In this document: positions 318 to 53,195 of the stretch, piece after piece
Numbering within the stretch: the first letter of the stretch is position 1
Layout of the letters: each line of letters opens with the position of its first letter
NCBI GenBank assembly: GCA_007376445.1
Contig: VMGF01000001.1
Location: 21,802-85,801, forward strand
Direction: 5' to 3'
Source: Parcubacteria group bacterium Gr01-1014_3
GTDB lineage: Bacteria; Patescibacteriota; Minisyncoccia; UBA6257; WO2-44-18
Length of the DNA: 64,000 bases
The notes under the pieces: model-generated
Databases searched by the model: none
Seen by the model: only the letters and a program-made list of their open reading frames with translations
What the model was told of the DNA's origin: nothing
Made by a program: the position numbers and the translations under genes

Positions 318-761
318 TTATACCGCGTATCGGCAGAAGCGCTCAACCCGGATATTCTCTCCAACTTTGGAGATAACACCCTTGATCAGATTCTCAACGG
401 TCAAGCTCGGATCTTTGACATAGGTCTGCTGAAGAAGTTCGGCGGTATCTTTCGGATCCATGGCGGCAATATGCATCACCAAGTCATGCGCTAAGGCCCG
501 GAAAGGATCGGAGCGGACCACGAAATCGGTCTCGCAACGCAAATCCAACAACACGCCCACGCGGCCGTTATGAACATAGGTCTCGAGCAAACCGGCGCCA
601 GTCGCCCTGTCCGCCTTTTTCTCGGCGCGGATCAAACCACGCTCCTGAATAACTTTTTGCGCTAAATCAAAATCGCCTTTCGCTTCTTCCAGCGCTTTTT
701 TGCATTCCATTACACCAGCACCGGTAATCTCGCGAAGTTTTTGTACATCACCTGCCGTCAT
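318..761 (-). CDS. tsf: elongation factor Ts (short form)
   Basis: N-terminal UBA-like segment VQKLREITGAGVMECKKALEE, dimerisation-core motifs; immediately downstream of rpsB as in canonical rpsB-tsf operon. Confidence 0.85.
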   Translation of the reverse strand: MTAGDVQKLREITGAGVMECKKALEEAKGDFDLAQKVIQERGLIRAEKKADRATGAGLLETYVHNGRVGVLLDLRCETDFVVRSDPFRALAHDLVMHIAAMDPKDTAELLQQTYVKDPSLTVENLIKGVISKVGENIRVERFCRYAV

Positions 762-770
762 ATTCTTTAA

Positions 771-813
771 TTCGCAATATTAATGATTTTATTTGTATAT
801 TCGCGACTACTCC
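771..813 (-). promoter_or_regulatory. conserved 43-nt upstream motif, copy A (before tsf ATG)
   Basis: TTCGCAATATTAATgatTTTATTTGTATATTCGCGAcTACTCC; 9 nt from ATG. Confidence 0.6.
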
Positions 814-814
814 G

Positions 815-11946: not shown

Positions 11947-11993
11947 AGGGTTTTCTCTTTTATAACTTCCGATTTTGAATGTTGGTTTTATTA

Positions 11994-12036
11994 TTCGCAA
12001 TATTAAATCTCTGATTTGTATATTCGCGATTACTCC
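11994..12036 (-). promoter_or_regulatory. conserved 43-nt upstream motif, copy B (before hpf)
   Basis: TTCGCAATATTAAatctctgATTTGTATATTCGCGATTACTCC. Confidence 0.6.
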
Positions 12037-13007
12037 ACATATATCACTTCCTCCTCTAACTTTATGCCGTATTTCTTATCCACGCCAGACTTCACCAGTT
12101 TAATTAACTGCTTCACATCCTCCGCTTTGGCGCCGAGCGCGTTGACGATAAAGTTTGGATGCTTTGGCGAAATCATCGCGCCGCCGAAGCTGACTCCTTT
12201 CAATCCAGCCTGCGAAATAAGGTACGCCGTCGGCACGACCGGGAATGGGTCTTTTTTGATAACTTCCTTGAACTCTGAGTGGAGTTTTTTCGGGACCAGT
12301 CGCAAATCCACATTCTTAAAAATACTGCCGATATTCGGATACTCCAGCGGCTGGCGCGCTTTCCGGTAGGCGATCTTTTCCTCGATCGCCGCGCGGATGG
12401 CTTTCTTGTCGCCTTTTTTCATTTTGAAAACTGCTTCGATAATAATCTCCTTTGGCCCTAAGCCGACTTGCCCTGAGCTTGCCGAAGGGTCGTCGATCTT
12501 GAAAATGCTATTTCGATAACCAAATTTACATTCTGCATTATTGCGCTTCACTATCTTCGGGATCTTGGCAGAAATATCTAGGCTGACAACTTCATTTATA
12601 TTGTCTTTCGTTTCACCACCAAAAGCTCCGGCGTTACCGCGGATTGCGCCACCAACCGTCCCAGGCAGACCGCCAGCCCATTCGAATCCTGAAAGTGATT
12701 TAGTAATTGAGTAATTGAGTAATTCAGAAATCTGCACACCGGCTCCAACCCGGATCAGATTACCTTCCGCTTTTAATAAACCGATCTCCGGCTTTAAAAC
12801 CAGCCCGCCAAAACCCGCGTCGCTGATCAGAAGGTTGGTACCGCCGCCCAGCGTGAAGATCGGGAGTTTTTCCGCGCGCGCTTTTTCCACGGCGCAAACT
12901 ATGTCCTCAACAGTTTTCGCGGCAAAAAAATAGCGGGCAGCGCCGCCAATTTTGTAGTTGCTGTATTTGGCTAATTCGATTTTATTCTCAAACATGCATT
13001 TATTCAT
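12030..13007 (-). CDS. murB: UDP-N-acetylenolpyruvoylglucosamine reductase
   Basis: FAD-binding N-terminus KIGGAARYF...LGGGTNLL, C-terminal MurB domain; contains in-frame GC 20-mer encoding PSASSGQ. Confidence 0.85.
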   Translation of the reverse strand: MNKCMFENKIELAKYSNYKIGGAARYFFAAKTVEDIVCAVEKARAEKLPIFTLGGGTNLLISDAGFGGLVLKPEIGLLKAEGNLIRVGAGVQISELLNYSITKSLSGFEWAGGLPGTVGGAIRGNAGAFGGETKDNINEVVSLDISAKIPKIVKRNNAECKFGYRNSIFKIDDPSASSGQVGLGPKEIIIEAVFKMKKGDKKAIRAAIEEKIAYRKARQPLEYPNIGSIFKNVDLRLVPKKLHSEFKEVIKKDPFPVVPTAYLISQAGLKGVSFGGAMISPKHPNFIVNALGAKAEDVKQLIKLVKSGVDKKYGIKLEEEVIYVE

Positions 13008-13552: not shown

Positions 13553-13563
13553 ATTCCGCCGAT

Positions 13564-13592
13564 AGATTAGCAATTTAGGATGGATTTGTCAA
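13564..13592 (-). promoter_or_regulatory. promoter TTGACA-N17-TAATCT (minus strand)
   Basis: rc: TTGACAaatccatcctaaattgcTAATCT; identical copy at 14003-14031. Confidence 0.6.
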
Positions 13593-13593
13593 A

Positions 13594-13620
13594 TAAAAAA
13601 ACCGCTATCCAGTAGCGGCT
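13594..13620 (-). terminator. rho-independent terminator
   Basis: rc aagccgctactggatagcgg + ttttttt. Confidence 0.6.
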
Positions 13621-13976: not shown

Positions 13977-14002
13977 CCAGCCTCCTTCAAAGTACCGCCG
14001 AT

Positions 14003-14031
14003 AGATTAGCAATTTAGGATGGATTTGTCAA
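14003..14031 (-). promoter_or_regulatory. promoter TTGACA-N17-TAATCT (minus strand), exact duplicate
   Basis: 46-nt identity with 13553-13600. Confidence 0.6.
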
Positions 14032-14032
14032 A

Positions 14033-14057
14033 TAAAAAACCGCCGTTATAACGGCGG
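14033..14057 (-). terminator. rho-independent terminator
   Basis: rc ccgccgttataacggcgg + tttttt. Confidence 0.6.
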
Positions 14058-17408: not shown

Positions 17409-17795
17409 TTATAAAGTTAACTCGTCGAGCAACTTATCAATTTCAGCGCCAATGGCTTCATCGGACTCGAGATAATACTTAACTTCGCCAAGCTGGATCT
17501 GAAAATCCAGATTGCTAGCTTCACTGCGAAGTTTGGCTTCGTTGATCAAAGAAACCGCGCCAGGCGAAACTTTCTGAAGATTCAGATAAGAGAAGCCGCC
17601 GATAACCACGAAAAGCAAAAGGCTGGCCAGAGATAAGGCCATGCTCAACTTCAGACTGTCCAAAACTCCCCGGACTAGACCTGGAAACTGCTTCTGCGGA
17701 GCGGAGATGATTAAATTCTTGGAACGTTCAAGAAAGCCTTTTTCCGGCTGTAGAATCTTCAGTGATTTTAAAAGTTGTAAGATCTTTTCCTCCAT
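17409..17795 (-). CDS. putative anti-sigma factor (single TM)
   Basis: position immediately downstream of ECF sigma gene, central TM helix; inference from context only. Confidence 0.4.
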   Translation of the reverse strand: MEEKILQLLKSLKILQPEKGFLERSKNLIISAPQKQFPGLVRGVLDSLKLSMALSLASLLLFVVIGGFSYLNLQKVSPGAVSLINEAKLRSEASNLDFQIQLGEVKYYLESDEAIGAEIDKLLDELTL

Positions 17796-17804
17796 TTAAT
17801 TTAA

Positions 17805-17847
17805 TTCGCAATATTAATTCTTTTATTTGTACATTCGCGATTACTCC
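17805..17847 (-). promoter_or_regulatory. conserved 43-nt upstream motif, copy C (between ECF sigma and anti-sigma-like gene)
   Basis: TTCGCAATATTAATtcTTTTATTTGTAcATTCGCGATTACTCC; 9 nt from ATG 17795. Confidence 0.6.
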
Positions 17848-18401
17848 GATTCACCATCGGCGGACCGATCTCCCAGTTGTTCCCTGAGAGCATTGAGAGC
17901 GCGGTGCTGGATGAGCCTTACTGCCCCCTCACTTTTACCCAGCGTCGCGGCAATATCGCGATGCGGCAGGTCTTCGATGAATTTCATTATCAAAACGTCT
18001 TGCTGTTCAGGACCCAAGTTCCGCATAGCCTTCTGGATGACTTCCAGACTCAAGATTTTCTCCAGATTGTTTTCCGTCATGTCCACCAGCTTGACCGCGC
18101 TTTCATCCAACTCATCAACGTTGGCATGAAACTTTTTAGTCCGGTAGTGGTCAATGACCTTGTTTCGGGCGATCTGGTAAAGCCAGCTCGAGAATGGAAA
18201 GCCTTGCGACTTATATCCCCGAAGGTTCTGCCAGGCGCTTAAAAACACATCGTGGGTCAAATCTTCGGCCTCATACCGATTAGTGACCTTGAGAAGGATG
18301 AAGCGATAAATTTGAGGCGTGTAGTGGTCGTAAATTTGGCCAAAACACTCCTTTTCGCCCTTCTTAGCCCTATTAATTAATTTATCCTCACCTTCTAGCA
18401 T
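17841..18401 (-). CDS. RNA polymerase ECF-type sigma-70 family factor
   Basis: region 2 (FGQIYDHYTPQIYRFILLKV...DLTHDVFLSAWQNL) and region 4 HTH (DIAATLGKSEGAVRLIQHRALNALR). Confidence 0.85.
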   Translation of the reverse strand: MLEGEDKLINRAKKGEKECFGQIYDHYTPQIYRFILLKVTNRYEAEDLTHDVFLSAWQNLRGYKSQGFPFSSWLYQIARNKVIDHYRTKKFHANVDELDESAVKLVDMTENNLEKILSLEVIQKAMRNLGPEQQDVLIMKFIEDLPHRDIAATLGKSEGAVRLIQHRALNALREQLGDRSADGESE

Positions 18402-20158: not shown

Positions 20159-20500
20159 TTGAATGCTGTCTATATCGCGCTTGAAGCCTTGCGTTTCTCC
20201 AAGAAGGCTGGACATGGTGTCTGCCCGCGCCGGGTCGAGGAGCTCCGGATCGAAATCGAGAACGGAGCCGAAATCCATCCGATCCGGGTGAACGCTCTCG
20301 GCGACGGCACCTACACGATCAAGGACGGTCGCCATCGCGTGAAGGCGCACATCCTCGCCGGTTTCTCGGAGATTCTGGCAGTCATCGAGAATACAGCTAG
20401 CCGAATTAAACGTTTACTAAGAAAGGTTTTTGGTTTCCTCAGCCGCTCGAAAGAGCGGTTTTTTATTGTCGCTACTATCACATGTGATAGTACTATCTAG
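20159..20500 (+). CDS. ParB/sulfiredoxin-like nuclease-domain small protein (TTG start)
   Basis: IKDGRHRVKAHILAG matches ParB N-terminal DGxHR signature; GGAGG SD 6 nt before TTG; 3' end overlaps hairpin terminator and palindrome cluster. Confidence 0.5.
   Translation: MNAVYIALEALRFSKKAGHGVCPRRVEELRIEIENGAEIHPIRVNALGDGTYTIKDGRHRVKAHILAGFSEILAVIENTASRIKRLLRKVFGFLSRSKERFFIVATITCDSTI
20441..20466 (+). terminator. rho-independent terminator at 3' end of ParB-like gene
   Basis: ccgctcgaaagagcgg + ttttttatt. Confidence 0.55.
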
Positions 20501-28401: not shown

Positions 28402-28464
28402 AGTGGTTATACTACATCAAAATGAATTCATTGGCAATAGCCGAACTCGGAATCCGAACACAAA

Positions 28465-28600
28465 TGTTAATTTCCAATTTTAAATTTTTAATTTTAAATT
28501 AAATCAAAATGAGAAAATGTTAAAAAATTTATTCATTAATTCATTCAATTAAAACTTAAAATTTATAATTTAAAATTATTCCATTTTAGCTTAGAATTTG
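28465..28600. repeat. AT-rich AATTTTAAATT repeat island (operon spacer rpsU / HIT)
   Basis: tandem degenerate units ttccaattttaaatttttaattttaaatt...; same family at 28931-29026, 30340-30456, 38170-38265, 50692-50806, 51670-51755, 37255-37300. Confidence 0.7.
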
Positions 28601-28605
28601 TGTAT

Positions 28606-28929
28606 TTAAGGTTGTGGCCAGCCACCCAAAAGATGCAGATGTAAGTGGTCGATTACCTGACCACCCTCCCGTCCTACATTAAAAACGAGCTTATAACCCT
28701 TTAAATCGAACTTTGCCGCCAGATCTTTCGCCGCGTAGATCAGACCGGCCAAGAGCTCCTTATGATTGCCCTCCAGGTGAGCGATAGATTGAATGTGCTC
28801 TTTTGGGATAACTAGATAATGAACCGGTGCGGATGGCCGGATGTCTTTAAAAGCCATTAAACTCTCGGTCTCCATTGCCAGTTCAGCGGGAATTTCTTTT
28901 TTCGCAATTTTACAGAAGACACAGTCCAT
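28606..28929 (-). CDS. HIT family (histidine triad) hydrolase
   Basis: GGQVIDHLHLHLLGG HIT motif. Confidence 0.85.
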   Translation of the reverse strand: MDCVFCKIAKKEIPAELAMETESLMAFKDIRPSAPVHYLVIPKEHIQSIAHLEGNHKELLAGLIYAAKDLAAKFDLKGYKLVFNVGREGGQVIDHLHLHLLGGWPQP

Positions 28930-28930
28930 G

Positions 28931-29026
28931 AAAATTTTAAATTTCCAATTTTAAATTTTAATTTAATTTTTTAATTTATGAATTTTATAATTCATTTAAA
29001 ATTAAAAATTTAGAATTTAAAATTAC
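28931..29026. repeat. AT-rich AATTTTAAATT repeat island (spacer HIT / hisS)
   Basis: aaattttaaatttccaattttaaattttaatttaatttttt... Confidence 0.7.
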
Positions 29027-30319
29027 TTAGTGCATCTTCCGTTTAATGGCCGCGACTATTTTCTTAAGTGGCACGGTCTCTTGGGCGCCAGTTTTCATAT
29101 CGCGAATAATGATGGACTGCTCAAACGCTTCTTTCTGACCAAAGATCAGCGAAAGCGGCGCCTCGAACTTATTGGCCGTGCGAAGTTGCGCGTTCAAAGA
29201 ATCCTTGCCGAGCTGTTCCATGACATCAATCCCCGCTTCCCTTAATTCTTCGATCAAAACTAAACTTCGTTTTTTAGCGGTGTCCCCGATGTGAATTAAA
29301 AAGATCTTCGGACGAACACGATTACCCAGCGAAATCTCTTTCGTCTTCATCACCTCGATAATCCGTTCAAGACCCATGGCCCCACCGACACCCGGCGACT
29401 GCCGTCCTCCCATTAACTCAATAAGATAGTCATAACGTCCGCCGGCGCCAAGCGCGAAATCAAATCCCTCGGCAAAGATCTCAAAAACCGTTTTGGTGTA
29501 ATAATCGAAGCCGCGCACCAGAAGTGGATTGAGCATATATGGTAATTTCAACTCTTCCAGATACTCCAAAACTTTCTTGAAGTGCTTACGGCAATCACTG
29601 CAAAGATTATCGATAGTCTGCGGCGCTTCTTTTTTCAGCTCAACACATCCCGAAACCTTGCAATCCAAAAGCCGCATCGGATTGGTGTGAATGCGCCGCT
29701 TGCAGTCACCGCACAAAGATTTTTCTTTATTCTTATAATATTCCAGTAAATTTTTCCGGTAGATCGGGCGGCATTTGTTGCAACCAATACTGTTGATCTG
29801 TAAATTGATATTCTTGATCTTTAAATCATCCAGCGTGCGGTAGCAGGCCAGCATAGTCTGTACATCATAGACCGGATCGTTGTCAGAGCTGATTATCTCA
29901 AAGCCCGCCTGGTGAAACTGCCTGGTACGCCCAGCTTGCGGTTGCTCGTAGCGGAACATCGGACCTTCATACCAAAGCTTTAGTGGCTGACCAAGATGGC
30001 TCAGACCATGCTCGATGTACGATCGGACTATAGAAGCTGTTCCTTCAGGGCGAAGCACTACTTCATCCCCGCCCTTGGTTTTGAATGAAAACATCTGCTT
30101 TTCTACCACATCGGAAGTATCGCCCAGCGGCCGTTTAAATAATTCCAATTTTTCCATAACCGGAGTTTCGATCTTTAAAAAATTATAAAAGCCGGCGATT
30201 TCTTTGACGGCTTTCCGGATTCGGTCCCACCATGGCTGATCAGCCGGCAAAATATCGTTCATCCCTTTCAGGCTGGAGACCGGCTGTCTCTTCACTTTTT
30301 TCTGATCCTTTTTGGACAT
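29027..30319 (-). CDS. hisS: histidyl-tRNA synthetase
   Basis: LKGMNDILP N-terminus, class II motifs, RPEGTASIVR, anticodon-binding C-term; insertion domain unusually Cys-rich (4 CxxC-like pairs). Confidence 0.85.
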   Translation of the reverse strand: MSKKDQKKVKRQPVSSLKGMNDILPADQPWWDRIRKAVKEIAGFYNFLKIETPVMEKLELFKRPLGDTSDVVEKQMFSFKTKGGDEVVLRPEGTASIVRSYIEHGLSHLGQPLKLWYEGPMFRYEQPQAGRTRQFHQAGFEIISSDNDPVYDVQTMLACYRTLDDLKIKNINLQINSIGCNKCRPIYRKNLLEYYKNKEKSLCGDCKRRIHTNPMRLLDCKVSGCVELKKEAPQTIDNLCSDCRKHFKKVLEYLEELKLPYMLNPLLVRGFDYYTKTVFEIFAEGFDFALGAGGRYDYLIELMGGRQSPGVGGAMGLERIIEVMKTKEISLGNRVRPKIFLIHIGDTAKKRSLVLIEELREAGIDVMEQLGKDSLNAQLRTANKFEAPLSLIFGQKEAFEQSIIIRDMKTGAQETVPLKKIVAAIKRKMH

Positions 30320-30339: not shown

Positions 30340-30456
30340 GATTAAGAATTTATAAGCAAGTTTTTTGGAATTTTAAATTATAAATTTTTAATTTTAAATG
30401 AATTTTAAATTTTGAAATTAGTAATTAATTTAAAATTTATAATTTAAACTTTAAAA
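30340..30456. repeat. AT-rich repeat island (spacer hisS / lepB)
   Basis: ggaattttaaattataaatttttaattttaaatgaattttaaattttgaaatt... Confidence 0.7.
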
Positions 30457-31011
30457 TTATTCAACGCCTGGTCGGGAAATAATGCCAAGCTCTTTAACCG
30501 GTAAGAGGCGGGCCCTGACAATACCAACGATATATCTCCTCTCCAGCGGTCCCCAACTTCTTGAATCCAGGCTGTTCAAACGATTATCCCCCATCACGAA
30601 ATACTGATCCGGCCCGAGCACCGCTTCCACGCCACCGGTCGTAAAAGTATTCTCCGGAAGATATTTTTCGTTGAGGAAAATCTCCACGCCTTTGTTGAAA
30701 ACTTTAACTTCATTTTTTCTGACGGTTACTTTATCTCCCGGAATGCCGATAATTCTTTTAATAAAAAAAGTTTTAGGATCTTTAGGATACCGGTGCACGA
30801 TCACGTCGCCGCGCTCCGGCTCACCGAATCGATAAGTCAGTTCATCTACTATTAAATAATTGCCGTCGTAAAAGTTCGGCTCCATACTGGCGCCGCTCAC
30901 TAAAAATGGCTGGGCGATGAACTGGCGAATCAAAAACACCACGGCCGCCGAAACGATGACCACCTCCAGCACTTCCCAGACAGAAGATAAGAATTTCTTG
31001 AAGCCAACCAT
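30457..31011 (-). CDS. lepB: signal peptidase I
   Basis: GASMEPNF (Ser box), RIIGIPGDKV, YFVMGDNRLNSLDSR boxes. Confidence 0.85.
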   Translation of the reverse strand: MVGFKKFLSSVWEVLEVVIVSAAVVFLIRQFIAQPFLVSGASMEPNFYDGNYLIVDELTYRFGEPERGDVIVHRYPKDPKTFFIKRIIGIPGDKVTVRKNEVKVFNKGVEIFLNEKYLPENTFTTGGVEAVLGPDQYFVMGDNRLNSLDSRSWGPLERRYIVGIVRARLLPVKELGIISRPGVE

Positions 31012-33819: not shown

Positions 33820-33860
33820 TTCGCAATATTAATCTTTTATTTGTATATTAGCGATTACTT
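33820..33860 (-). promoter_or_regulatory. conserved 43-nt upstream motif, copy D (before pilM-like gene)
   Basis: TTCGCAATATTAATcTTTTATTTGTATATTaGCGATTACTt; 11 nt from ATG 33808. Confidence 0.55.
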
Positions 33861-34748: not shown

Positions 34749-35595
34749 AATATTTTCTCTAAAACTAGAGAATTGATGTTCCCACCGCACGGACGGTTTT
34801 CCCGTATACGGCGAGCTCAATGCATTTTTTGCTTTAGCTTATAAAGATCACGCAAACCGCTAGGAATAAGGTGTTCGCCTTTGCGGATCCTACGCATAAT
34901 CTCACAGAAAATTTGGAAATCGTACCTCTTTGAAGGAAATCGTAATCGATTTTCTTTGAAAAACGGTATAATTATTTCTGCCAAATCTGTTCTGTTAGCT
35001 ACTTCGAAACGATAGCAATGCTGATGATTTTCGCGATTGTCTTTTTGAAAGTAGACATTCCCGCATTTAAAGTATTCCTTTAAAGCATCCAGTATTACCT
35101 TATCCTTTTCGATAAGCTTTACGTAAAATCTAGGCTCTATCTTTACTCTTCTAGTTGTTCTGTTGATTTGATCAGGATTACGAACATAAGCAGTAAAACT
35201 GCCTTCGCCATCCACCAAACCAACGATGTAATCTTTAGTTAACATTGAGTGAGTGCCTTCATCCCGCTAATCGAGACTACTATGACTCAGCTGACTTCTG
35301 ACGCTGCGTCAGTTTTATGATACCTCGATATTGCTATCGAGAACAGCATCAGATCTCCACAGGTCACGTAAAATTCTCTTCTTAGCATCCTAGACAAGCC
35401 GTAGATAAAGTCTTCCCCGCCCTCACCACCCACTGGCAGGTCGACTGGCTTTGTTAATGTCTGGCTGTTATTTGCTTTCAGATCCTCCACCGAACACCTC
35501 GCGATGCTCGGCTATCTTTTAGCTACGTTCCGATGACGGACATCGGAAGAATGGATTTTAACCATTTAGAAAATTACGCTGCTGCGCGCTTTTAT
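34749..35595 (-). mobile_element. self-splicing-type intron (847 bp) in 16S rRNA near the helix-44 base (E. coli position about 1400), carrying a LAGLIDADG homing endonuclease ORF
   Basis: conserved CCTGTACTCAC | ... | CGCCCGTCA junction is split by non-rRNA sequence containing ORF 34817-35245. Confidence 0.7.
34817..35245 (-). CDS. LAGLIDADG homing endonuclease (intron-encoded)
   Basis: YIVGLVDGEGSF dodecapeptide motif, size 142 aa, located inside 16S intron. Confidence 0.8.
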   Translation of the reverse strand: MLTKDYIVGLVDGEGSFTAYVRNPDQINRTTRRVKIEPRFYVKLIEKDKVILDALKEYFKCGNVYFQKDNRENHQHCYRFEVANRTDLAEIIIPFFKENRLRFPSKRYDFQIFCEIMRRIRKGEHLIPSGLRDLYKLKQKMH

Positions 35596-35912
35596 TGTGA
35601 GTACAGGACTCGAGAACGTATTCACCGTGGTATAGCTGACCCACGATTACTAGCGATTCCAGCTTCATGAGGGCGAGTTGCAGCCCTCAATCTGAACTGA
35701 GGCCATTTTTGATGGGATTAGCTCCGCCTTGCGGCTTGGCAACCCTTTGTAATGGCCATTGTAGCACGAGTGTGGCCCAGGGCATCAGAGGGCCATGCGG
35801 ATTTGACGTCATCCCCGCCTTCCTCCGTGTTAAACACGGCAGTCTCCCGCGACATATAAAACGCAGGATAGGGGTTGCGCTCGTTAACCCACTTAAGGGA
35901 ACGCTTCAAAGT

Positions 35913-35944
<32 letters not shown>

Positions 35945-36067
35945 TCACGTCCTTGAGAGACGACGCACCTTTCGGCGCGTCTTCGTGACCATTTCAAGCC
36001 CTGGTAAGGTTCTTCGTTTATTGTCGAATTAAACCTCATGCTCCACCGCTTGTGCGAGTCCCCGTCT

Positions 36068-36099
<32 letters not shown>

Positions 36100-36609
36100 T
36101 CCCAGGCGGTCAACTTAACGCGTTAGCTACGCCACTCCGAGGGTCGATACTCGAAACAGCAAGTTGACATAGTTTAGGGCGTGGACTACAAGGGTATCTA
36201 ATCCTTTTTGCTCCCCACGCTTTCGTGCAATGAGAGTCAGGAGTGCTCCAGTTAAATGCCTTCGCCTTTGGTATTCCTCACAATATCAACGGATTTCACC
36301 CCTACACCGTGAGTTCTATTAACCTCTAGCACCCTCTAGTCAGGCCGTATCTTCTGCGAGCTTCCCGTTGAGCGGGAAGATTTTACAAAAGACGCACCCG
36401 ACCTCCTGCGCACGCTTTACGCCCAATAAATCCGGATAACGCTCGTGGCCTTCGTATTACCGCGGCTGCTGGCACGAAGTTTGCAGCCACTTATTCCATG
36501 GGTACAATCAATAACTTTTTCCCCATTAAAAGCAGTTTACGATCCGAAGACCTTCATCCTGCACGCGGCGTCGCTCGATCAGACTTTCGTCCATTGTCGA
36601 ATATTCTCG

Positions 36610-36652
<43 letters not shown>

Positions 36653-37419
36653 CGTTGGGGATCAGCCTCTCAGCCCCCCTACCGGTCATAGCCTTGGTGA
36701 GCCATTACCTCACCAACTAGCTGATCGGACCTAGGCCGCTCCCGAAGTGACTTGCGTCTTTCGTCTTTCGACAATATCGGACATTAGTCTATCTTTCGAT
36801 AGATTATTTCCGTCTTCGGGGTGCGTACCAAGGTGTTACTAACCCGTTCGCCACTATACTTTTATCTCTCTTGACTTGATATAATCTCATCTTAATTAAC
36901 AAAAGTACCGTTCGACTTGCATGCCTTATCCACGCCGCCAGCGTTCATCCTGGACCAGGATCAAATCCTCAAAAAAAATTACCGAACATTGAATTTATTT
37001 TAGTAAATTCACCATTCGCTAACTGTTGGGACAACTACAAAATTCTTGACTAAATTTTGACTCGATCTTGATTTTTAATTCTTGGTTGTGTATACAACAC
37101 ACTGCAATTTTCGAAGTTCAGTCGGCTGCGCTTTTTTAATAACGCATCCGGCCCGCTCTCCCTGAATCCCAGAGGGAACCGGCCGGATGAATTAAAACCT
37201 TTATTCACTTGTCGCCTATCTGTGAAAAGAAGTATATATGAAAGCGCTGTTTCGTGTCAACTGTCACAAAACAGCGAATTTTCAATTCTCAATTTTGCAA
37301 TTTTTGTCCCTTCGGGACATCTCCTGTAGGAAGACAATTAATTTACAATGAATTAATGTCCAAACAGTTTGATAATTTTATTTTAAGCATTGAATGAAAA
37401 TTGGTATTTGGAAATTGAA

Positions 37420-38086: not shown

Positions 38087-38169
38087 ACGTTTCTCCTATT
38101 ATTTCGTGACAGGAACAGTCAAAGAACTTGACTTACATACTACTCTATTTCAAAGTATTTGTCAAATGG

Positions 38170-38265
38170 GAAATTTTAAGTTTTAAATTATAAATTTTAA
38201 TTTAATTATTTAATTTCAAAATTTAAAATTAATTTATAATTAAAAATTTAGAATTTAAAATTATC
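38170..38265. repeat. AT-rich repeat island (upstream of lipoprotein gene / rpmE)
   Basis: gaaattttaagttttaaattataaattttaatttaatt... Confidence 0.65.
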
Positions 38266-38429
38266 AAATACCTCTTGCTTTTTCGTAATTTCTCGTATAT
38301 AATGTGTATTAAGTTTATGAAGCAAGACATTCACCTCCCGATTTCTTAATTCTTAAAATTAAGAAATCGAGGATCCTCGATTTTGTAGACAAATCAAAGA
38401 TTTGTACAAAATCGGGACAAAATACCTTT

Positions 38430-40233: not shown

Positions 40234-40290
40234 ATTCTTTCCTCCATTCAACGAACCGCCTACAAAGTAACAGTTTCAACACAAAATCAC

Positions 40291-40362
40291 AAGTACTATC
40301 ACGCGTGATAGTGCCCACCGCTTTCCCCATAGGAAAGTACTTTCCTATGGGGAAAGCGGTGG
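40291..40362. promoter_or_regulatory. palindromic operator cluster P2
   Basis: CTATCACGCGTGATAG plus 45-nt palindrome CACCGCTTTCCCCATAGGAAAGTACTTTCCTATGGGGAAAGCGGTG. Confidence 0.5.
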
Positions 40363-40655: not shown

Positions 40656-40708
40656 CTGAAATCCTTTCAAGGTACGACCACACTCTACAATAAAAAGGCT
40701 TATTTCGC

Positions 40709-40789
40709 AAGTACTATCACGCGTGATAGTACTATCCCATGTGATAGTGGCGAATATTCCATTATCCAGCCATGGCTGGATAATGGAAT
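40709..40789. promoter_or_regulatory. palindromic operator cluster P3
   Basis: CTATCACGCGTGATAG, CTATCCCATGTGATAG, TTCCATTATCCAGCCATGGCTGGATAATGGAA. Confidence 0.5.
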
Positions 40790-41648: not shown

Positions 41649-41755
41649 GCAACTGCTTTCCTATAGGAAAGCAGTTGCTATCCAGCTGGATAGCACTATC
41701 GCGCGTGATAGCATCTTCGCTTTCCTGAGGGAAAGTACTTTCCCTCAGGAAAGCG
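41649..41755. promoter_or_regulatory. palindromic operator cluster P4
   Basis: GCAACTGCTTTCCTATAGGAAAGCAGTTGC, CTATCCAGCTGGATAG, CTATCGCGCGTGATAG, CGCTTTCCTGAGGGAAAGTACTTTCCCTCAGGAAAGCG. Confidence 0.5.
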
Positions 41756-41841: not shown

Positions 41842-42153
41842 TTATCGAGCCGATCCTTTCAACTTAGAGACTGTCGGCCTCTCGTAGGATTCGGTCAGAA
41901 CGCCGAGATCCCACTTGAAGCCGAGGGCCGTCGCAAGCCGGACCATCATCTTGATGGTGATTGGAAACTCGCCATCCAGCAGTTGGGAAAGATATTCAGA
42001 TGGAATACCAACCCGCTTCGCCAACTCATCCTTGGAAATACCCCGGGCGTCGATCGCGTCATAAACCTTACTCGAGATAGCCACATGAAGTCGACTGGCC
42101 TCGCCCTGAACCTCGCGCTCAATATTCTTCCGCTTTTTCAAGATCTCATTCAT
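41842..42153 (-). CDS. XRE-family HTH transcriptional regulator
   Basis: ISKDELAKRVGIPSEYLSQLLDGE HTH_3 pattern. Confidence 0.7.
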   Translation of the reverse strand: MNEILKKRKNIEREVQGEASRLHVAISSKVYDAIDARGISKDELAKRVGIPSEYLSQLLDGEFPITIKMMVRLATALGFKWDLGVLTESYERPTVSKLKGSAR

Positions 42154-42359
42154 TTGCCCACCTCCTTACGACGCACATGCGTGCTTCGGCCACAGCTCGG
42201 ACACTGCGCCGGATTCCGGCGGAAGATCCTGGTCGTTTCAAGTCCCTCCTGTTCAATCGTAACCGATTCAACGCGCTCAACCTTGAAACTCCGTCCGCAG
42301 TTTTGGCAGTCATATTCCTCTTCGTTCTTCGGTGCCGGCTCAAGCGGTGGAAGGGTCAT
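42150..42359 (-). CDS. zinc-ribbon small protein
   Basis: CQNCG...CPSCG; translationally coupled to XRE gene. Confidence 0.5.
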   Translation of the reverse strand: MTLPPLEPAPKNEEEYDCQNCGRSFKVERVESVTIEQEGLETTRIFRRNPAQCPSCGRSTHVRRKEVGK

Positions 42360-42418: not shown

Positions 42419-42588
42419 TTACCCACGCACTAATTTTGCTTATTCAATATTTAAATTTTCTATCTTTAAGTCTTATCTAAATCAAAACAGCGATACGCTA
42501 GGGATCACGGCTATTCGCCGCCCGCGTATCGCTGTTCATATATCTGCAAAATTAGTGCGGGGTTATCGTTTTGTTGCTAAAATTTCGG
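42419..42588. mobile_element. MITE-like 170-bp element with 17-bp terminal inverted repeats, copy 1
   Basis: TIR CCCACGCACTAATTTTGC ... GCAAAATTAGTGCGGGG; internal palindrome ACAGCGATACGC...GCGTATCGCTGT; about 90% identical to 52441-52611. Confidence 0.55.
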
Positions 42589-42754
42589 TCGAAACCAACT
42601 CCTTCGTCGGAACGTCTCGGAGGCGGTTTTGCTTGGTTCAAAAACCGCCGAGAGAGAAGAAAAGTTTGCCGCTGGAGCAAACTTATTCTGGTTCCGAAAA
42701 GGAGTTGGTTGAGGGTACCGAAATTTTAGACAAAACTGATAAAAAATGGCCCGC

Positions 42755-43294
42755 TTACGCAGGACCATTATCTTCTCCCGAACTCTTATCCTCTTCACTT
42801 TCGTCTTCTGTTTCAACTTCCCGTCGCCAGCCATCATCTCCGCTATAAATCCATTTTCCAAAATCAATCACATTCACGACGGTGTGGGATTTATCTAAGA
42901 TAACCACGCGATGTCCCAGCTTCAACTGATCGATACACATCCTAAAAACGTCCAAAGCCTCGTATAAAAGATCGGCTCGCTCAAGGCGGCACTCCTTTTC
43001 TAGCTGATTCAATTCGGCATCAACCTTTTCATCCATCGAAAAAACAAAGAAAATCCGGCGAGATCCATCTGGCAGCTGACCACAGATTAGAGTCTCGCAT
43101 CGCCAACAATACTGCACTGGAAATCCTTCTTGGTTAATTCCAATCCGGATCTGGGTATTGCAAAGATCACAGGTCAACCAGATATCGACGTATACATTGG
43201 CGTCAGGGTCGAACTCCTTCCATGACACCGTCTTGCCTCTATCTCGCAGGCTGAGTTTTCTCGCGGCGCGGCGCGCTCTGAGCCATTCTAACAT
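42755..43294 (-). CDS. hypothetical protein with CxxC...CxxC and acidic tail
   Basis: ORF, GC-rich, CDLCNTQ...CWRCETLIC. Confidence 0.5.
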   Translation of the reverse strand: MLEWLRARRAARKLSLRDRGKTVSWKEFDPDANVYVDIWLTCDLCNTQIRIGINQEGFPVQYCWRCETLICGQLPDGSRRIFFVFSMDEKVDAELNQLEKECRLERADLLYEALDVFRMCIDQLKLGHRVVILDKSHTVVNVIDFGKWIYSGDDGWRREVETEDESEEDKSSGEDNGPA

Positions 43295-50691: not shown

Positions 50692-50806
50692 ATAATTTTA
50701 AATTATAAATTTTAAGTTTTAATTGAATGAATCAATGAACAAATTTTTAAACATTTTATCATTTTGATTTAATTTAAAATTAAAAATTTAAAATTGAAAA
50801 TTAGCG
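50692..50806. repeat. AT-rich repeat island (spacer between split tkt genes)
   Basis: aataattttaaattataaattttaagttttaattgaatg...aaaattaaaaatttaaaattgaaaatt. Confidence 0.7.
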
Positions 50807-51682
50807 CTACTCGTGTTCTGATTTTATTTTCCCTTTTAGCGTCCTTAATTCTGCCAGCGCTTTATTGGCTTCTTCTTTATTCGGCGGTTTGCCGTGCCAG
50901 TTGTAATCATTTTCCATGAAGCTCACTCCCTTCCCCGGAATCGTGTGCGCGATGATCACAGTCGGTTTTTCATAAATCGCCTGCGCTTCAGTGATCGCGT
51001 CCACGAACTGCTCGATATTATGGCCATCAACTTCCAGCACGTGCCAGCCGAAAGATTCATATTTAGATCGGAATGGCTCAAGCGGCATGATATTTTCCGT
51101 AAAGCCATCGATCTGAATATTGTTACGATCCACCACCATCGTGAGATTGCTCAACCGATTTTTTCCGGCAAACATCGCCGCTTCCCAGGTGTTGCCGCAA
51201 TCATGCTCTCCGTCAGAAGTAAGCGCGTAAACCCGGTATTTCTTTTTATCCATTCGCGCCGCGAGCGCCATACCCACTGCTTGTGAAAGTCCGGAGCCAA
51301 GCGGGCCGGAAGTAGTTTCCATACCCGGAAGAGAAGTCCTATGCGGATGCCCCTGAAGCCGGGAATTTATTTTGCGGAGAGTTTTTAATTCGGAAATCGG
51401 AAAATATCCCGCGTGCGCCATGGTTACATACCGCACCGGGCAAATATGACCGTTGGAAAGAACTAGCCGATCTCGCTCCGGCCAATCCGGCCGTTTCGGA
51501 TCATGATTCAAAATATGAAAATAAAAAGCGGTGAAGATATCAGTCATGCCGAGCGGACCGGCTGAATGACCGGAACCGGCCTGAACCAGCGTCTCAATAA
51601 TATCCTCACGGATCTCAGTCGCCTTTTCCTCGAGGAATTTTAATTTTTTATCGTGCAGAGCGGGGAGCATTATAATTTTCAA
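50807..51682 (-). CDS. tkt: transketolase, N-terminal (TPP-binding) subunit
   Basis: GHSAGPLGMTDI, SDGEHDCGNTWEA TPP motifs. Confidence 0.85.
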   Translation of the reverse strand: MKIIMLPALHDKKLKFLEEKATEIREDIIETLVQAGSGHSAGPLGMTDIFTAFYFHILNHDPKRPDWPERDRLVLSNGHICPVRYVTMAHAGYFPISELKTLRKINSRLQGHPHRTSLPGMETTSGPLGSGLSQAVGMALAARMDKKKYRVYALTSDGEHDCGNTWEAAMFAGKNRLSNLTMVVDRNNIQIDGFTENIMPLEPFRSKYESFGWHVLEVDGHNIEQFVDAITEAQAIYEKPTVIIAHTIPGKGVSFMENDYNWHGKPPNKEEANKALAELRTLKGKIKSEHE

Positions 51683-51755
51683 TTTTTAAACTGTTTGTGA
51701 ATTGGGTCATTGTAAATTGATTGAAAATTGCAAAATTGTTAATTGGAAATTTATA
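51670..51755. repeat. AT-rich repeat island (spacer rpe / tktN)
   Basis: ttataattttcaatttttaaactg...gaaaattgcaaaattgttaattggaaatttataat. Confidence 0.6.
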
Positions 51756-52422
51756 ATCTGGAAAGTTCTTCAAACGCCGCTTTCGGGTCAGTGCTACTGA
51801 ATATGTAAGACGCCGAGATTAGTATGTCCGCCCCGGCTTCTCGAGCTAATTGGGCGGTTTCTTGGTTAATACCGCCATCTACTTCAATTATAGCATCCGG
51901 CGCGTTGACTCTAAGGAACTTAATCTTCCCCAGGATCTTTGGATCAAAGGACTGGCCAGCCCAGCCCGGCGGGACGGCCAATAATTGAAGGTATTTAAAG
52001 TCGTCTTTGTGAGCTAAAAGCCGCTCCACATCCGTACCCGGATTGATCGCAAGCATCGCTTCCACTCCATATTTTTTACATTTTTCCAGAAGATAGACAG
52101 AATCCGTCATCGCTTCCAGGTGAAAGATCACCCGCTGAATTTTTCCGGTCCTTAACCAGCTATCAATCACCGCTTCGGGACTGGAAACCATCAGGTGTAA
52201 TTCAACTTTGACCGATGACAAATGACCGATGACATTAACCAGCTCAGCAGGGCTTCCCCAAGTCGTGTTGGGTGAAAAAATCCCGTCTACTATATCCAAG
52301 TGCGCCCACCCATCCTTCGCCAAGGCTTCGGAGGGCAAGTTCGCAAATATATTTTGAACGATTTTAAACTGGCGAGCGGCCTCTTCCGCATTCTGAACAT
52401 TAATCGCGGGAATAACTTGCAT
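51751..52422 (-). CDS. rpe: ribulose-phosphate 3-epimerase
   Basis: HLDIVDGIF, VDGGIN TIM-barrel motifs. Confidence 0.9.
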   Translation of the reverse strand: MQVIPAINVQNAEEAARQFKIVQNIFANLPSEALAKDGWAHLDIVDGIFSPNTTWGSPAELVNVIGHLSSVKVELHLMVSSPEAVIDSWLRTGKIQRVIFHLEAMTDSVYLLEKCKKYGVEAMLAINPGTDVERLLAHKDDFKYLQLLAVPPGWAGQSFDPKILGKIKFLRVNAPDAIIEVDGGINQETAQLAREAGADILISASYIFSSTDPKAAFEELSRL

Positions 52423-52440
52423 GGCTTAAGTATAACAAAA

Positions 52441-52611
52441 TTACCCACGCACTAATTTTGCCTTTTCAATATTTAAATTTTTCTATCTTTAAGTCTTTTT
52501 TAAATTAAAACAGCGATACGCTGGGGATCACGGCTATTCGCCGCCCGCGTATCGCTATTTATATATCTGCAAAATTAGTGCGGGGTTATCGTTTTGTTCC
52601 TAAAATTTCGG
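52441..52611. mobile_element. MITE-like 170-bp element, copy 2 (upstream of rpe)
   Basis: same TIRs and internal palindrome as copy 1. Confidence 0.55.
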
Positions 52612-52652
52612 CTCCTTCGGCAAGCTCAGGATTGAAATTTTAGACAAAGCCG

Positions 52653-52678
52653 ATAAAAAAGACCCCTTATTGGGGTCT
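52653..52678 (-). terminator. terminator after NUDIX gene
   Basis: rc agaccccaataaggggtc + ttttttatc. Confidence 0.6.
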
Positions 52679-53195
52679 AAAGTATTCCCTTCTGCTTCAT
52701 GTGCCAAAGAATCGATCGCCAGGCTGGTTCGAGATCAAAGCCAAGCGCCACGTCTGGATCAGCCCAGGTCAGCGACCCGTGCTTCGTCGGCTCCATGATC
52801 GCGCCAAGTTCCCGGTCGATTTCAATCAGCATGATGTACCAGTGGTGATTCTTGGCCTTACGGCAAGGATTCGAGGCCCAGAGCTCAAGTACGATAGAAG
52901 CACTCTTCAGCGCCTTATTGATCCCCGTCTCTTCCTCAAGCTCACGCAGCCCAGCGTAGAATGGATGCTCATCCTTCTCGATGTGGCCAGCCGGGCAAGC
53001 ATAGCCAAGACCGGGATCGAACTCACAATTGGACGAATCTTTTCCGCCGTAGATGCCCTTCAGGCGATCCAGTAGCAAAATCTTGCCAGTTGGAGCACGG
53101 ACTACCATCCCAACACTCGCGCATTCGGCATCAAACGGGCCAATCTCACGAATCGTAATCGGATACTCGCAACGCGGGATTCTGGGAATTTCCAC
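52677..53195 (-). CDS. NUDIX hydrolase
   Basis: Nudix box AGHIEKDEHPFYAGLRELEEETGI. Confidence 0.7.
   Translation of the reverse strand: MEIPRIPRCEYPITIREIGPFDAECASVGMVVRAPTGKILLLDRLKGIYGGKDSSNCEFDPGLGYACPAGHIEKDEHPFYAGLRELEEETGINKALKSASIVLELWASNPCRKAKNHHWYIMLIEIDRELGAIMEPTKHGSLTWADPDVALGFDLEPAWRSILWHMKQKGIL

Follow-up and report, generated by a model that had tools for sequence, protein, structure and literature searches.

Two closely similar stretches of non-coding DNA, 10 kb apart on one contig of Parcubacteria group bacterium Gr01-1014_3, raise the question of what this repeat is and how it came to lie at both places. We analyzed 64,000 nt of contig VMGF01000001.1 (positions 21,802-85,801 of the forward strand). 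This whole stretch is referred to as the window, and coordinates are positions within it. A preliminary description, made from the sequence of the window alone, had taken the repeat to be a MITE-like element of 170 bp with 17-bp terminal inverted repeats, one copy of which carried a nested insertion of about 130 bp.

We found that the two copies are present where they had been placed, and that their identity is somewhat higher than the earlier estimate of about 90%. Positions 42419-42588 are 94.2% identical to positions 52441-52611 over 171 nt, and positions 42720-42746 are 92.6% identical to positions 52634-52660 over 27 nt. The homology begins with TTACCC and finishes with GATAAAAAA. Copy 1 (W1) extends from 42419 to 42747 on the plus strand and contains two hairpins, D1 and D2, with a nested element in the apex of D2. 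In copy 2 (W2), the homology to W1 extends from 52441 to 52656. The outer flanks of the two copies are unrelated, and homology is lost a few bases beyond the hairpins on both sides. A search of the window with the arm CCCACGCACTAATTTTGC, allowing up to 3 mismatches, gave four matches (both arms of each copy), compared to a chance expectation of 0.14. A covariance model of the module inside D1 (model R1) matched only W1 and W2 within the 64-kb window.

The repeat is built differently from what had been proposed. Folding placed two adjacent hairpins, D1 and D2, in each copy (z = -9 to -14, on either strand). In W2, D1 occupies 52444-52585 (plus strand), with the stem CCCACG-CACTAATTTTGC / GCAAAATTAGTG-CGGGG, and D2 occupies 52586-52656 (plus strand), with TTATCGTTTTGTTCCTAAAATTTCGG and TGAAATTTTAGACAAAGCCGATAA on the two sides of a short apex. 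In W1, D1 occupies 42422-42562 (plus strand). The 5' strand of W1 D2 (TTATCGTTTTGTTGCTAAAATTTCGG) is at 42563-42588 and its 3' strand (CCGAAATTTTAGACAAAACTGATAA) is at 42718-42742, both on the plus strand. The D2 apex is ~20 nt in copy 2 and ~130 nt in copy 1. The arms of D1 are 17-18 bp, as in the preliminary description, but these inverted repeats form the stem of an internal hairpin and are not the ends of the inserted unit. Nor does the unit end at 42588 or 52611; it comprises D1 and D2 and measures ~214-220 bp rather than 170 bp. D2 opens directly after D1 (TTATCGTTTTGTTSCTAAAATTTCGG). The final 26 nt of the 170 bp described earlier form its 5' strand, and it closes with GAAATTTTAGACAAARCYGATAA, where homology had been said to resume after the element. 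The homology does resume there, not as a stray patch but as the 3' strand of D2. The final 3-4 bp of D2 in W2 (TTAT:ATAA) are formed with host bases.

The D1 loop of W2 consists of an AT-rich stretch followed by a GC-rich module that forms a three-way junction. The module is at 52509-52559 (plus strand) in W2 (R1 match of 42.2 bits, E=2e-7) and at 42486-42536 in W1 (R1 match of 42.4 bits). In W2, helix P1 is formed by ACAGCGATACGC and GCGTATCGCTAT, and the inner hairpin is GGC-TATTC-GCC. The internal 12-bp palindrome noted previously lies within this module and was found in both copies, with one mismatch in copy 2.

These features recur across a family of related copies (see below). The D1 stem is 18-20 bp across the family, with the conserved core AATTTTGC/GCAAAATT. 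The stems of D1 and D2 are alike (UUUUGC/GCAAAA and UUUUGU/ACAAAA) and share UUUUGY/RCAAAA. The shape of D2 is constant: a 3-bp closing stem, a bulged U, a 9-bp stem ending in UUGU/ACAA, a 2-nt bulge, and a variable top. The order of parts in the module is the GC-rich P1 strand, UUCG, CCC-N5-GGG, AU, a hairpin with a UAUUC loop, AC, and the closing strand of P1. The polarity of the module relative to D2 is fixed across the family, and the loop sequences are otherwise highly diverged. Of the unique copies, 37 have the module in the 5' slot of the D1 loop, and 13, W1 and W2 among them, have it in the 3' slot; the remaining slot is AT-rich and variable.

We found that W2 is an insertion, because the orthologous sites in two relatives are empty. 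In these relatives (L225 and L227, with rpe 83% and 77% identical to that of the window), GGGGTCTTTTTTAT is joined directly to TTGTTATACTTAAGCCATG, and the window has ~214 nt at this point. The terminator followed by TTTTTTAT is fused straight to TTGTTATACTTAAGCC and the ATG of rpe. In a third relative, there is no room for the element. The inserted segment of W2, which contains D1 and D2 and is missing from the empty sites, corresponds to 52439-52652 (plus strand), with a boundary that is uncertain by ~2 nt. Target-site duplications had been suggested as a feature to look for in further copies. At the one junction that could be reconstructed, that of W2, there is none longer than ~2 nt (at most 1-2 T's are duplicated), and no consistent target duplication was found across the family. 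The 5' flank is weakly similar to the D2 end (3.33 versus 2.84 of 7 positions, p about 0.001), a similarity that alternative pairing could explain equally well. The two ends of the unit (…TTACCCACG / …ACAAAGCCGA) do not form an inverted repeat.

All genes neighboring W1 and W2 are on the minus strand, on which each copy directly follows an intrinsic terminator and precedes the next gene. W2 is located between the NUDIX gene (52677-53195, minus strand) and rpe (51751-52422, minus strand). The NUDIX-gene terminator (52660-52678, minus strand) is host sequence; its U-tract abuts the element, and it is also found beside the empty sites of L225 and L227. As at W2, a terminator-like hairpin and U-tract (42750-42763, minus strand) abuts W1. 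It belongs to the gene encoding a 179-aa protein at 42755-43294 (minus strand), and the Zn-ribbon/XRE pair (41842-42359, minus strand) lies on the other side of W1. The minus-strand flank is TTTTTTAT at both W1 and W2. Other copies are flanked by a T-run plus (C)AT or by TTTTGCCAT, with one junction verified.

It had been proposed that the two copies could donate promoter or operator sequences to the genes beside them. Our results do not support promoter donation for either copy. The rpe gene has an extended -10-like box (TGTTATACT; 52428-52438, minus strand) that is not donated by the element, because it belongs to the native flank and is the same in the empty sites. The ATG of rpe (52420-52422) is likewise native. 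The promoter-like site of the Zn-ribbon/XRE pair (TTGCCA-17-TACTAT) is outside W1, and in a promoter scan of the D1 loop neither window copy scored above shuffled sequence. As both copies occupy the gap from a terminator to the promoter that follows, the most likely reading is that W1 and W2 are neutral and transcriptionally quiet. Some relatives have promoter-like sequence in the D1 loop. Among type-1 copies, the scan found strong sites in 6/37 in one orientation versus 1/37, a slight excess.

Three ORFs called at 42555-42867 had no Pfam match (E<=1). They overlie the repeat, the nested element and the terminator and are most likely not genes, in agreement with the earlier suspicion that the overlapping ORFs in this region are spurious. 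In the annotation, 42419-42747 and 52441-52656 should be entered as repeat elements and the ORFs at 42555-42867 dropped.

We found that W1 and W2 belong to a family with many further copies, for which a search had been recommended. Public metagenome and species-representative genome collections were searched for two 12-nt arm cores separated by 92-122 nt. This arm-pair pattern matched 73 metagenome loci, mostly from groundwater, and 30 loci in species-representative genomes. Approximately 90 of the loci recovered are plausible family copies. About a dozen metagenome loci (e.g., L006, L014, L050, L059, L063, L033, L062, L022/L028 and L039/L061) were excluded as unrelated long inverted repeats that share the 12-mers by chance. 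All of the genome loci are in Patescibacteria MAGs except for one in an 886-kb MAG labeled Gammaproteobacteria. The hosts include Harrison-, Lipton-, Jorgensen-, Niyogi- and Sungiibacteria and Minisyncoccia. A single MAG contains up to 3 copies with exact arms, with variant-arm copies in addition.

Model R1 gave 115 matches in 615 kb of element-bearing loci and 0 matches in 700 kb of viral control sequence. It recovered copies with compensated differences in the arms (CACCAATTTTGC/GCAAAATTGGTG, CTCTAATTTTGC/GCAAAATTAGAG and CACCTACTTTGC/GCAAAGTAGGTG). Viral contigs contained no exact-arm copy, and a shortened arm pattern gave only chance matches there, none with the module. A strict 47-nt pattern for the module had no match in the genomes. 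Both window copies and the copy in L040 had no match in Rfam 15 at the gathering threshold; the best permissive hits had E >= 0.17, far below the cut-offs. A full-text literature search found no description of MITE-like elements in CPR/Patescibacteria. These small mobile repeats, widespread in Parcubacteria-type CPR bacteria, therefore appear to be a new and undescribed family. The preliminary description was right that the repeat is a discrete, non-coding element present in multiple copies. One MAG has three near-identical copies at unrelated loci, and in assembly ORMF01, D1 is 95% identical to that of W2 and D2 cannot be aligned. Judged from such sequence comparisons, these cases point to mobility and to modular exchange.

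Copies of the family are found in several genomic settings, among them rRNA genes. Three lie in the 23S gene of L002 (504-3869). In the 16S gene of L060, one copy replaces the 5-nt loop of helix 17 (with the window's own 16S as the reference), and at least one additional copy is located further upstream. The rRNA-gene copies are at helix tips; in them the module is usually a palindromic dimer and D2 is absent.

Elsewhere, many copies are next to the start of a gene. Approximately half of the copies outside rRNA genes have an ORF start near the 3' end of D2, including starts 3 nt inside it or just at it. In at least 15 distinct copies, the ATG of a recognizable gene is at -3 to +4 from the D2 3' end. 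These genes encode L11 (rplK), L27 (rpmA), L33, DnaJ, SerS, YebC and an HMA (heavy-metal) ATPase. In the start-codon copies, D1 is preceded by an SD-like motif at a distance of 3-8 nt or by a TATAAT-like box at ~8 nt. The arrangement -10/D1/D2/ATG occurs at each of two successive ribosomal protein genes in L031. Other copies, including those in the window and in L001, L005, L026, L083, L084, L095 and L100, are located after the terminator of a gene on the opposite strand. Still others lie where a same-strand gene ends, with an arm supplying its stop codon (…ACC CCG CAC TAA). A 445-aa ORF that abuts D1 in L070 was considered as a candidate TnpB; inspected by eye, it was unlike TnpB, and it just ends in an arm-supplied stop codon. 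The orientation of copies to their neighboring genes is about even (11 '++' versus 10 '--').

The same genes can carry the element in distant lineages and lack it in close ones. The genes for L11 (rplK), L27 (rpmA) and the heavy-metal ATPase carry it in lineages in which the proteins are 48-77% identical. Between loci with adjoining proteins at 65-77% identity, D2 itself is 97-100% identical. Between nusG and rplK, the site is filled in L040 and L231 (89% identity in L11) and empty in L229 and L230, in which L11 is 96% and 88% identical, respectively, to that of L040. In the filled sites the native promoter-like intergenic sequence is replaced, and the D1 loop contains TTTACA-16/17-TA(C/T)AAT facing rplK. 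We considered that the copies upstream of rplK and rpmA might be anciently orthologous and rejected this as a sufficient account, because with empty sites in close relatives repeated gain or loss is at least as likely. Gain or loss over short periods thus affects leader-type copies as well. Repeated arrival at the same type of site (ATGGCA starts, or a T-run plus YAT) is as likely as inheritance. A selected leader RNA fits the presence of the element at the same genes in diverged lineages as well as a target preference does.

We found that the stems of the element covary. The module had 118 cells with double changes versus 34 in shuffles, with slid controls far lower, and the D1 arms also covary. 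In the lower stem of D2 (19 copies), 98.7% of cells were paired, a percentage that is somewhat inflated because the 3' strands were picked for best pairing, and 10/12 pairs were compensatory. G-U pairs made up only ~10 of the ~616 paired cells in the module and 1/225 in D2. With both strands about equal in folding and both poor in G-U pairs, neither G-U counts nor folding energy discriminates the strand. The near-absence of G-U pairs would be unusual if selection acted on an RNA from one strand, and fits pairing on both strands or at the level of DNA. Template-switch correction of quasi-palindromes can also yield covariation in inverted repeats, and could likewise account for the scarcity of G-U pairs. 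Because of this alternative, the covariation does not tell which molecule folds. That the element has a defined sense is clear from its conserved bulges, junction nucleotides and polarity, but these features do not demonstrate a function of its RNA. Conserved unpaired nucleotides in the module and a fixed polarity would meet no obvious need in a purely selfish DNA palindrome.

Based on these results, we suggest that W1 and W2 are probably recent copies of a non-autonomous mobile DNA element, a two-hairpin unit from an undescribed CPR family. The element inserts in one piece into very short intergenic spacers; W2 landed between the terminator U-tract and the -10 box of rpe, and the same locus carries the element in some relatives and is empty in others. 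The D1 loop would carry exchangeable cargo, consisting of the three-way-junction module and the variable AT-rich slot. The start-codon copies could also be read as a functional cis-acting RNA, either a 5' leader or a processing cassette, of which the window copies would be displaced or decayed members. D1 would then be a 5'-terminal stabilizer, a terminator or an RNase III site, and the D2 stem would hold the start codon and control or organize translation initiation. We consider this reading unlikely. It would account for the positions of the 15 or more ATG codons, the SD-like motifs (3-8 nt) or TATAAT-like boxes (~8 nt) upstream of D1, the two consecutive ribosomal protein genes in L031, the conserved bulges and junction nucleotides with their fixed polarity, and the identity of D2 (97-100%) at loci where the adjoining proteins have diverged to 65-77%. 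However, the genes flanking the window copies are on the opposite strand, with the copies after a terminator and before the next -10 box, and orientation to neighboring genes is about even across the family (11 versus 10). Close relatives (96% identity in L11) lack the element upstream of rplK, and other copies lie within rRNA genes or supply the stop codon at gene 3' ends. G-U pairs are almost absent, and no Rfam family matches.

It is distinctly improbable that W1 and W2 are instead two copies of a small RNA gene in its own right, with plus-strand transcription driven by a -10-like box immediately before D1. The very stable folding (z = -9 to -14), the conserved structured module and a TATAAC-like box 8 nt upstream of W2 are what such a gene might have. 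There is no plus-strand terminator after D2, though, as the U-tract of the downstream hairpin is on the other strand. Promoter-like scores in the window are no better than those of shuffled sequence, the two strands fold equally well, and the copy is missing in relatives with otherwise identical flanks. We attach almost no weight to a segmental duplication, or to attachment-site repeats bounding a 10-kb island. W1 and W2 are direct repeats at that distance, but the intervening DNA carries genes for GAPDH-side sugar-phosphate enzymes, transketolase, aldolase and ribosomal protein L25. This is core sugar-phosphate metabolism plus L25, in the same gene order as in relatives, and therefore not an att-bounded island. 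Furthermore, homology stops within a few bases of the hairpins. The preliminary description had named a larger duplicated region with only these two copies as the case against a discrete element; ~90 further copies are present in unrelated contexts, and the empty sites indicate that W2 is an insertion of the repeat alone.

The mobile element was probably moved in trans as single-stranded hairpin DNA. We infer this because it is a pair of hairpins that lacks both terminal inverted repeats and any clear target duplication, because its stems are Watson-Crick paired with almost no G-U, and because the foot of D2 pairs with neighboring host bases. The mobilizing enzyme would be a hairpin-recognizing HUH/Y1-type transposase or a comparable recombinase, rather than a DDE transposase. 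No transposase or autonomous partner was found among the 25 most frequent Pfam families listed (42 window ORFs). When transcribed, the element would fold compactly, and this could explain why insertions are tolerated at the tips of rRNA helices and in the space from upstream signals to a start codon.

Comparison with known systems places the repeat in a MITE-like family without the classical anatomy of terminal inverted repeats and target-site duplications. Like a classical MITE (a deletion derivative of a DDE IS), the element is short (~214 nt), non-coding and multi-copy, with presence/absence polymorphism (empty sites in L225, L227, L229 and L230). Unlike a classical MITE, its inverted repeats close D1 only and are not at the ends of the unit. 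Correia/NEMIS elements of Neisseria and ERIC/IRU elements of enterobacteria are bacterial MITE-like palindromic repeats of 100-200 bp. They are single long palindromes with terminal inverted repeats as their ends, and Correia makes a TA duplication. Co-transcription yields long hairpins from them, and in some cases they supply promoters. Our element resembles them in being non-coding, multi-copy, variably present among strains, and located in short spacers beside start and stop codons. It differs in consisting of two different tandem hairpins with internal inverted repeats, in having no clear duplication, and in its conserved three-way-junction cargo, and no sequence similarity to them was found.

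The element appears to resemble HUH/Y1 single-stranded-DNA transposition more than DDE-type MITEs. Like IS200/IS605-derived PATEs and REPINs, which are mobilized by Y1/HUH enzymes, it has hairpins with similar stems at or near both ends, lacks unit-wide terminal inverted repeats and an evident duplication, and seems to insert beside a short T-rich/YAT motif. At W2, bases beside its hairpin foot are paired with flanking target sequence (TTAT:ATAA), as in those systems. In contrast to IS608, in which the guide is 5' of the hairpin foot, its pairing topology is different. Its arms (CCCCGCACTAATTTTGC) lack the GTAG/CGTC head of REP/REPIN sequences, its D1 loop is far larger than that of any IS200/IS605 end hairpin, and no Y1 transposase, TnpB or RAYT was found among the 25 Pfam families listed for ORFs of the 64-kb window, which is part of a 265-400-kb contig. 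Like an integron attC site, the element conserves its structure more strongly than its sequence, has an imperfect hairpin with bulges at fixed positions, and draws part of the base of its stem from the target. However, it has no R''/R' core (RYYYAAC/GTTRRRY), cassette array or linked integrase. The ends of its stem read ACCCCG…CGGGGT followed by TATCG or GCTC, with no GTTRRRY.

Rickettsia palindromic elements (RPEs) are also palindromic repeats in a reduced genome that are tolerated inside functional genes, including RNA genes. RPEs are mostly in-frame in protein genes, whereas the coding overlap of our element is limited to supplying a stop codon or adjoining a start. In the rRNA genes of CPR bacteria, Tsurumaki et al. 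(2024, PMC11270868) list uncharacterized ORF-less insertions of <200 bp and suggest that these are probably intervening sequences (IVS) that RNase III cuts. The family members in the L002 23S gene and in helix 17 of the L060 16S gene are similar to these: they are stem-loops of 130-160 nt at variable helix tips, without ORF or intron features. The window copies differ from rRNA IVS in being intergenic, and the family is dispersed in intergenic DNA. A link between the rRNA insertions and a dispersed intergenic repeat is not made in PMC11270868.

The family joins these two things, which have been treated separately. ORF-less insertions inflate CPR rRNA genes and disturb 16S surveys; if the link is true, a mobile element accounts for part of the unusual structure of these genes. 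CPR/Patescibacteria genomes are small and dense, and reports of small mobile repeats from this group are few. Because it is placed so precisely at start codons, terminators and stop codons, the element is a ready marker of strain-level variation, and the family is a candidate system for studying the tolerance or use of such elements in gene expression.

A more specific proposal, which we regard as doubtful, combines target choice by base pairing with a source of rRNA insertions and a portable cassette of promoter and RNA module. The few bases between D1 and D2 would be a guide, complementary to the host bases that close D2. The target bases would be ATGGCA at start codons, ATGAA, or ATAA after terminator U-tracts. 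If true, this would explain repeated insertion before the same genes in different lineages and the source of short, unexplained insertions in CPR 16S/23S rRNA genes, and the element would be a portable cassette that brings promoters and a structured RNA module to new loci.

We found that the element accepts further nested elements at the D2 apex, as in W1. The nested element in W1, E2 (42589-42717, minus strand), is ~130 nt and branched, with an outer stem (UCGGAAC/GUUCCGA) and two hairpins, and has no Rfam match. The nested insertion inferred previously is thus a separate structured element that also occurs alone elsewhere. In the Harrisonbacteria genome (L040), an E2-like sequence is located downstream of rplK. 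E2 is 85% identical over 62 nt to L040:12292-12352 (L032 and L103 contain the same sequence). Its fold matches that of L040:12215-12375 (minus strand), with compensatory differences, and no D1 or D2 adjoins it in L040. By sequence and fold, E2 appears to be a second element family that was inserted at the D2 apex of W1. The other part of the earlier claim, an insertion in copy 1, has an alternative: CTCCTTCG and GCAAGCT are found both at the ends of E2 and in the short apex of copy 2, so that a deletion in copy 2 is possible instead. Different inserts are present at the D2 apex in L044 and L047. In L078, an insert is located between D1 and D2, with a GGCTTG direct repeat on both sides.

Genes upstream of the hairpin element (a mobile repeat of ~214 nt made of two hairpins, D1 and D2) run into the 5' arm of D1 at several loci (L001, L009, L020, L036, L070 and L100) and terminate at a TAA within this conserved arm. 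The gene end reads …ACC CCG CAC TAA, giving a C-terminal T-P-H. Because the upstream genes end at the TAA of the D1 arm, their original stop codons have been replaced by the hairpin element. The element is also carried by L097 (OZ246416.1), a chromosome of 886 kb labelled 'uncultured Gammaproteobacteria'. A genome this small that also carries the element suggests that L097 is a mislabelled CPR genome.

We found a second structured repeat, E2, of ~130-150 nt. It lies at 42589-42717 in the window, nested in the D2 apex of a hairpin element copy, and at 12215-12375 in the Harrisonbacteria genome L040, on the minus strand in both. Its fold consists of two hairpins, in which compensatory changes occur, and an outer stem (UCGGAAC/GUUCCGA). 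E2 had no match in Rfam. In L040, E2 has rplK on one side and a NUDIX gene on the other; this NUDIX gene is missing in the close relative L229.

Genomes that carry the hairpin element contain further small elements that are palindromic (CCCCGTTA…TAACGGGG). These were near D1 copies in L015, L031, L044 and L069. In L078 (4395-4460), the palindromic element is between D1 and D2, with a GGCTTG direct repeat on its flanks. This suggests that several MITE-like families are present in these CPR genomes.

Two other sequences recur in front of genes. A motif of ~55 nt (…ATTCGCAATATTAA…TTTGTATATTCGCGATTACTCC) is repeated immediately 5' of genes in the window (759-814, 11982-12037, 17793-17848 and 33833-33859). 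In relatives without the hairpin element, a motif of this kind is found in front of rplK (L229:1150-1200 and L230:1150-1185). The motif looks like a lineage-specific promoter or operator. The palindrome TACTATCACGCGTGATAGTA occurs three times 5' of small genes adjoining the XRE/Zn-ribbon pair (40287-40312, 40705-40736 and 41687-41712) and once more at 20.5 kb (20473-20497). These sites look like operators of a helix-turn-helix regulator.

The 16S rRNA gene of the window (35550-36976, minus strand; 1427 nt matched) contained no insertion of the hairpin element. A match to group II intron D1-D4 was found ~200 nt downstream of 16S (35254-35345, minus strand). The 64-kb window contains 16S and no 23S gene, and the two rRNA genes therefore appear to be unlinked.

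An exact direct repeat of 45 nt (CCGCCGATAGATTAGCAATTTAGGATGGATTTGTCAAATAAAAAA) is present at 13556-13600 and 13995-14039, a copy spacing of 439 nt. Many intergenic regions of the window contain AT-only periodic repeats (AATTTTAAATTTT…), including 28460-29030, 30369-30461, 38165-38282 and 50694-50812. These are apparently phased A/T tracts; in one pair (28928 and 38166), identity is 72% over 117 nt.
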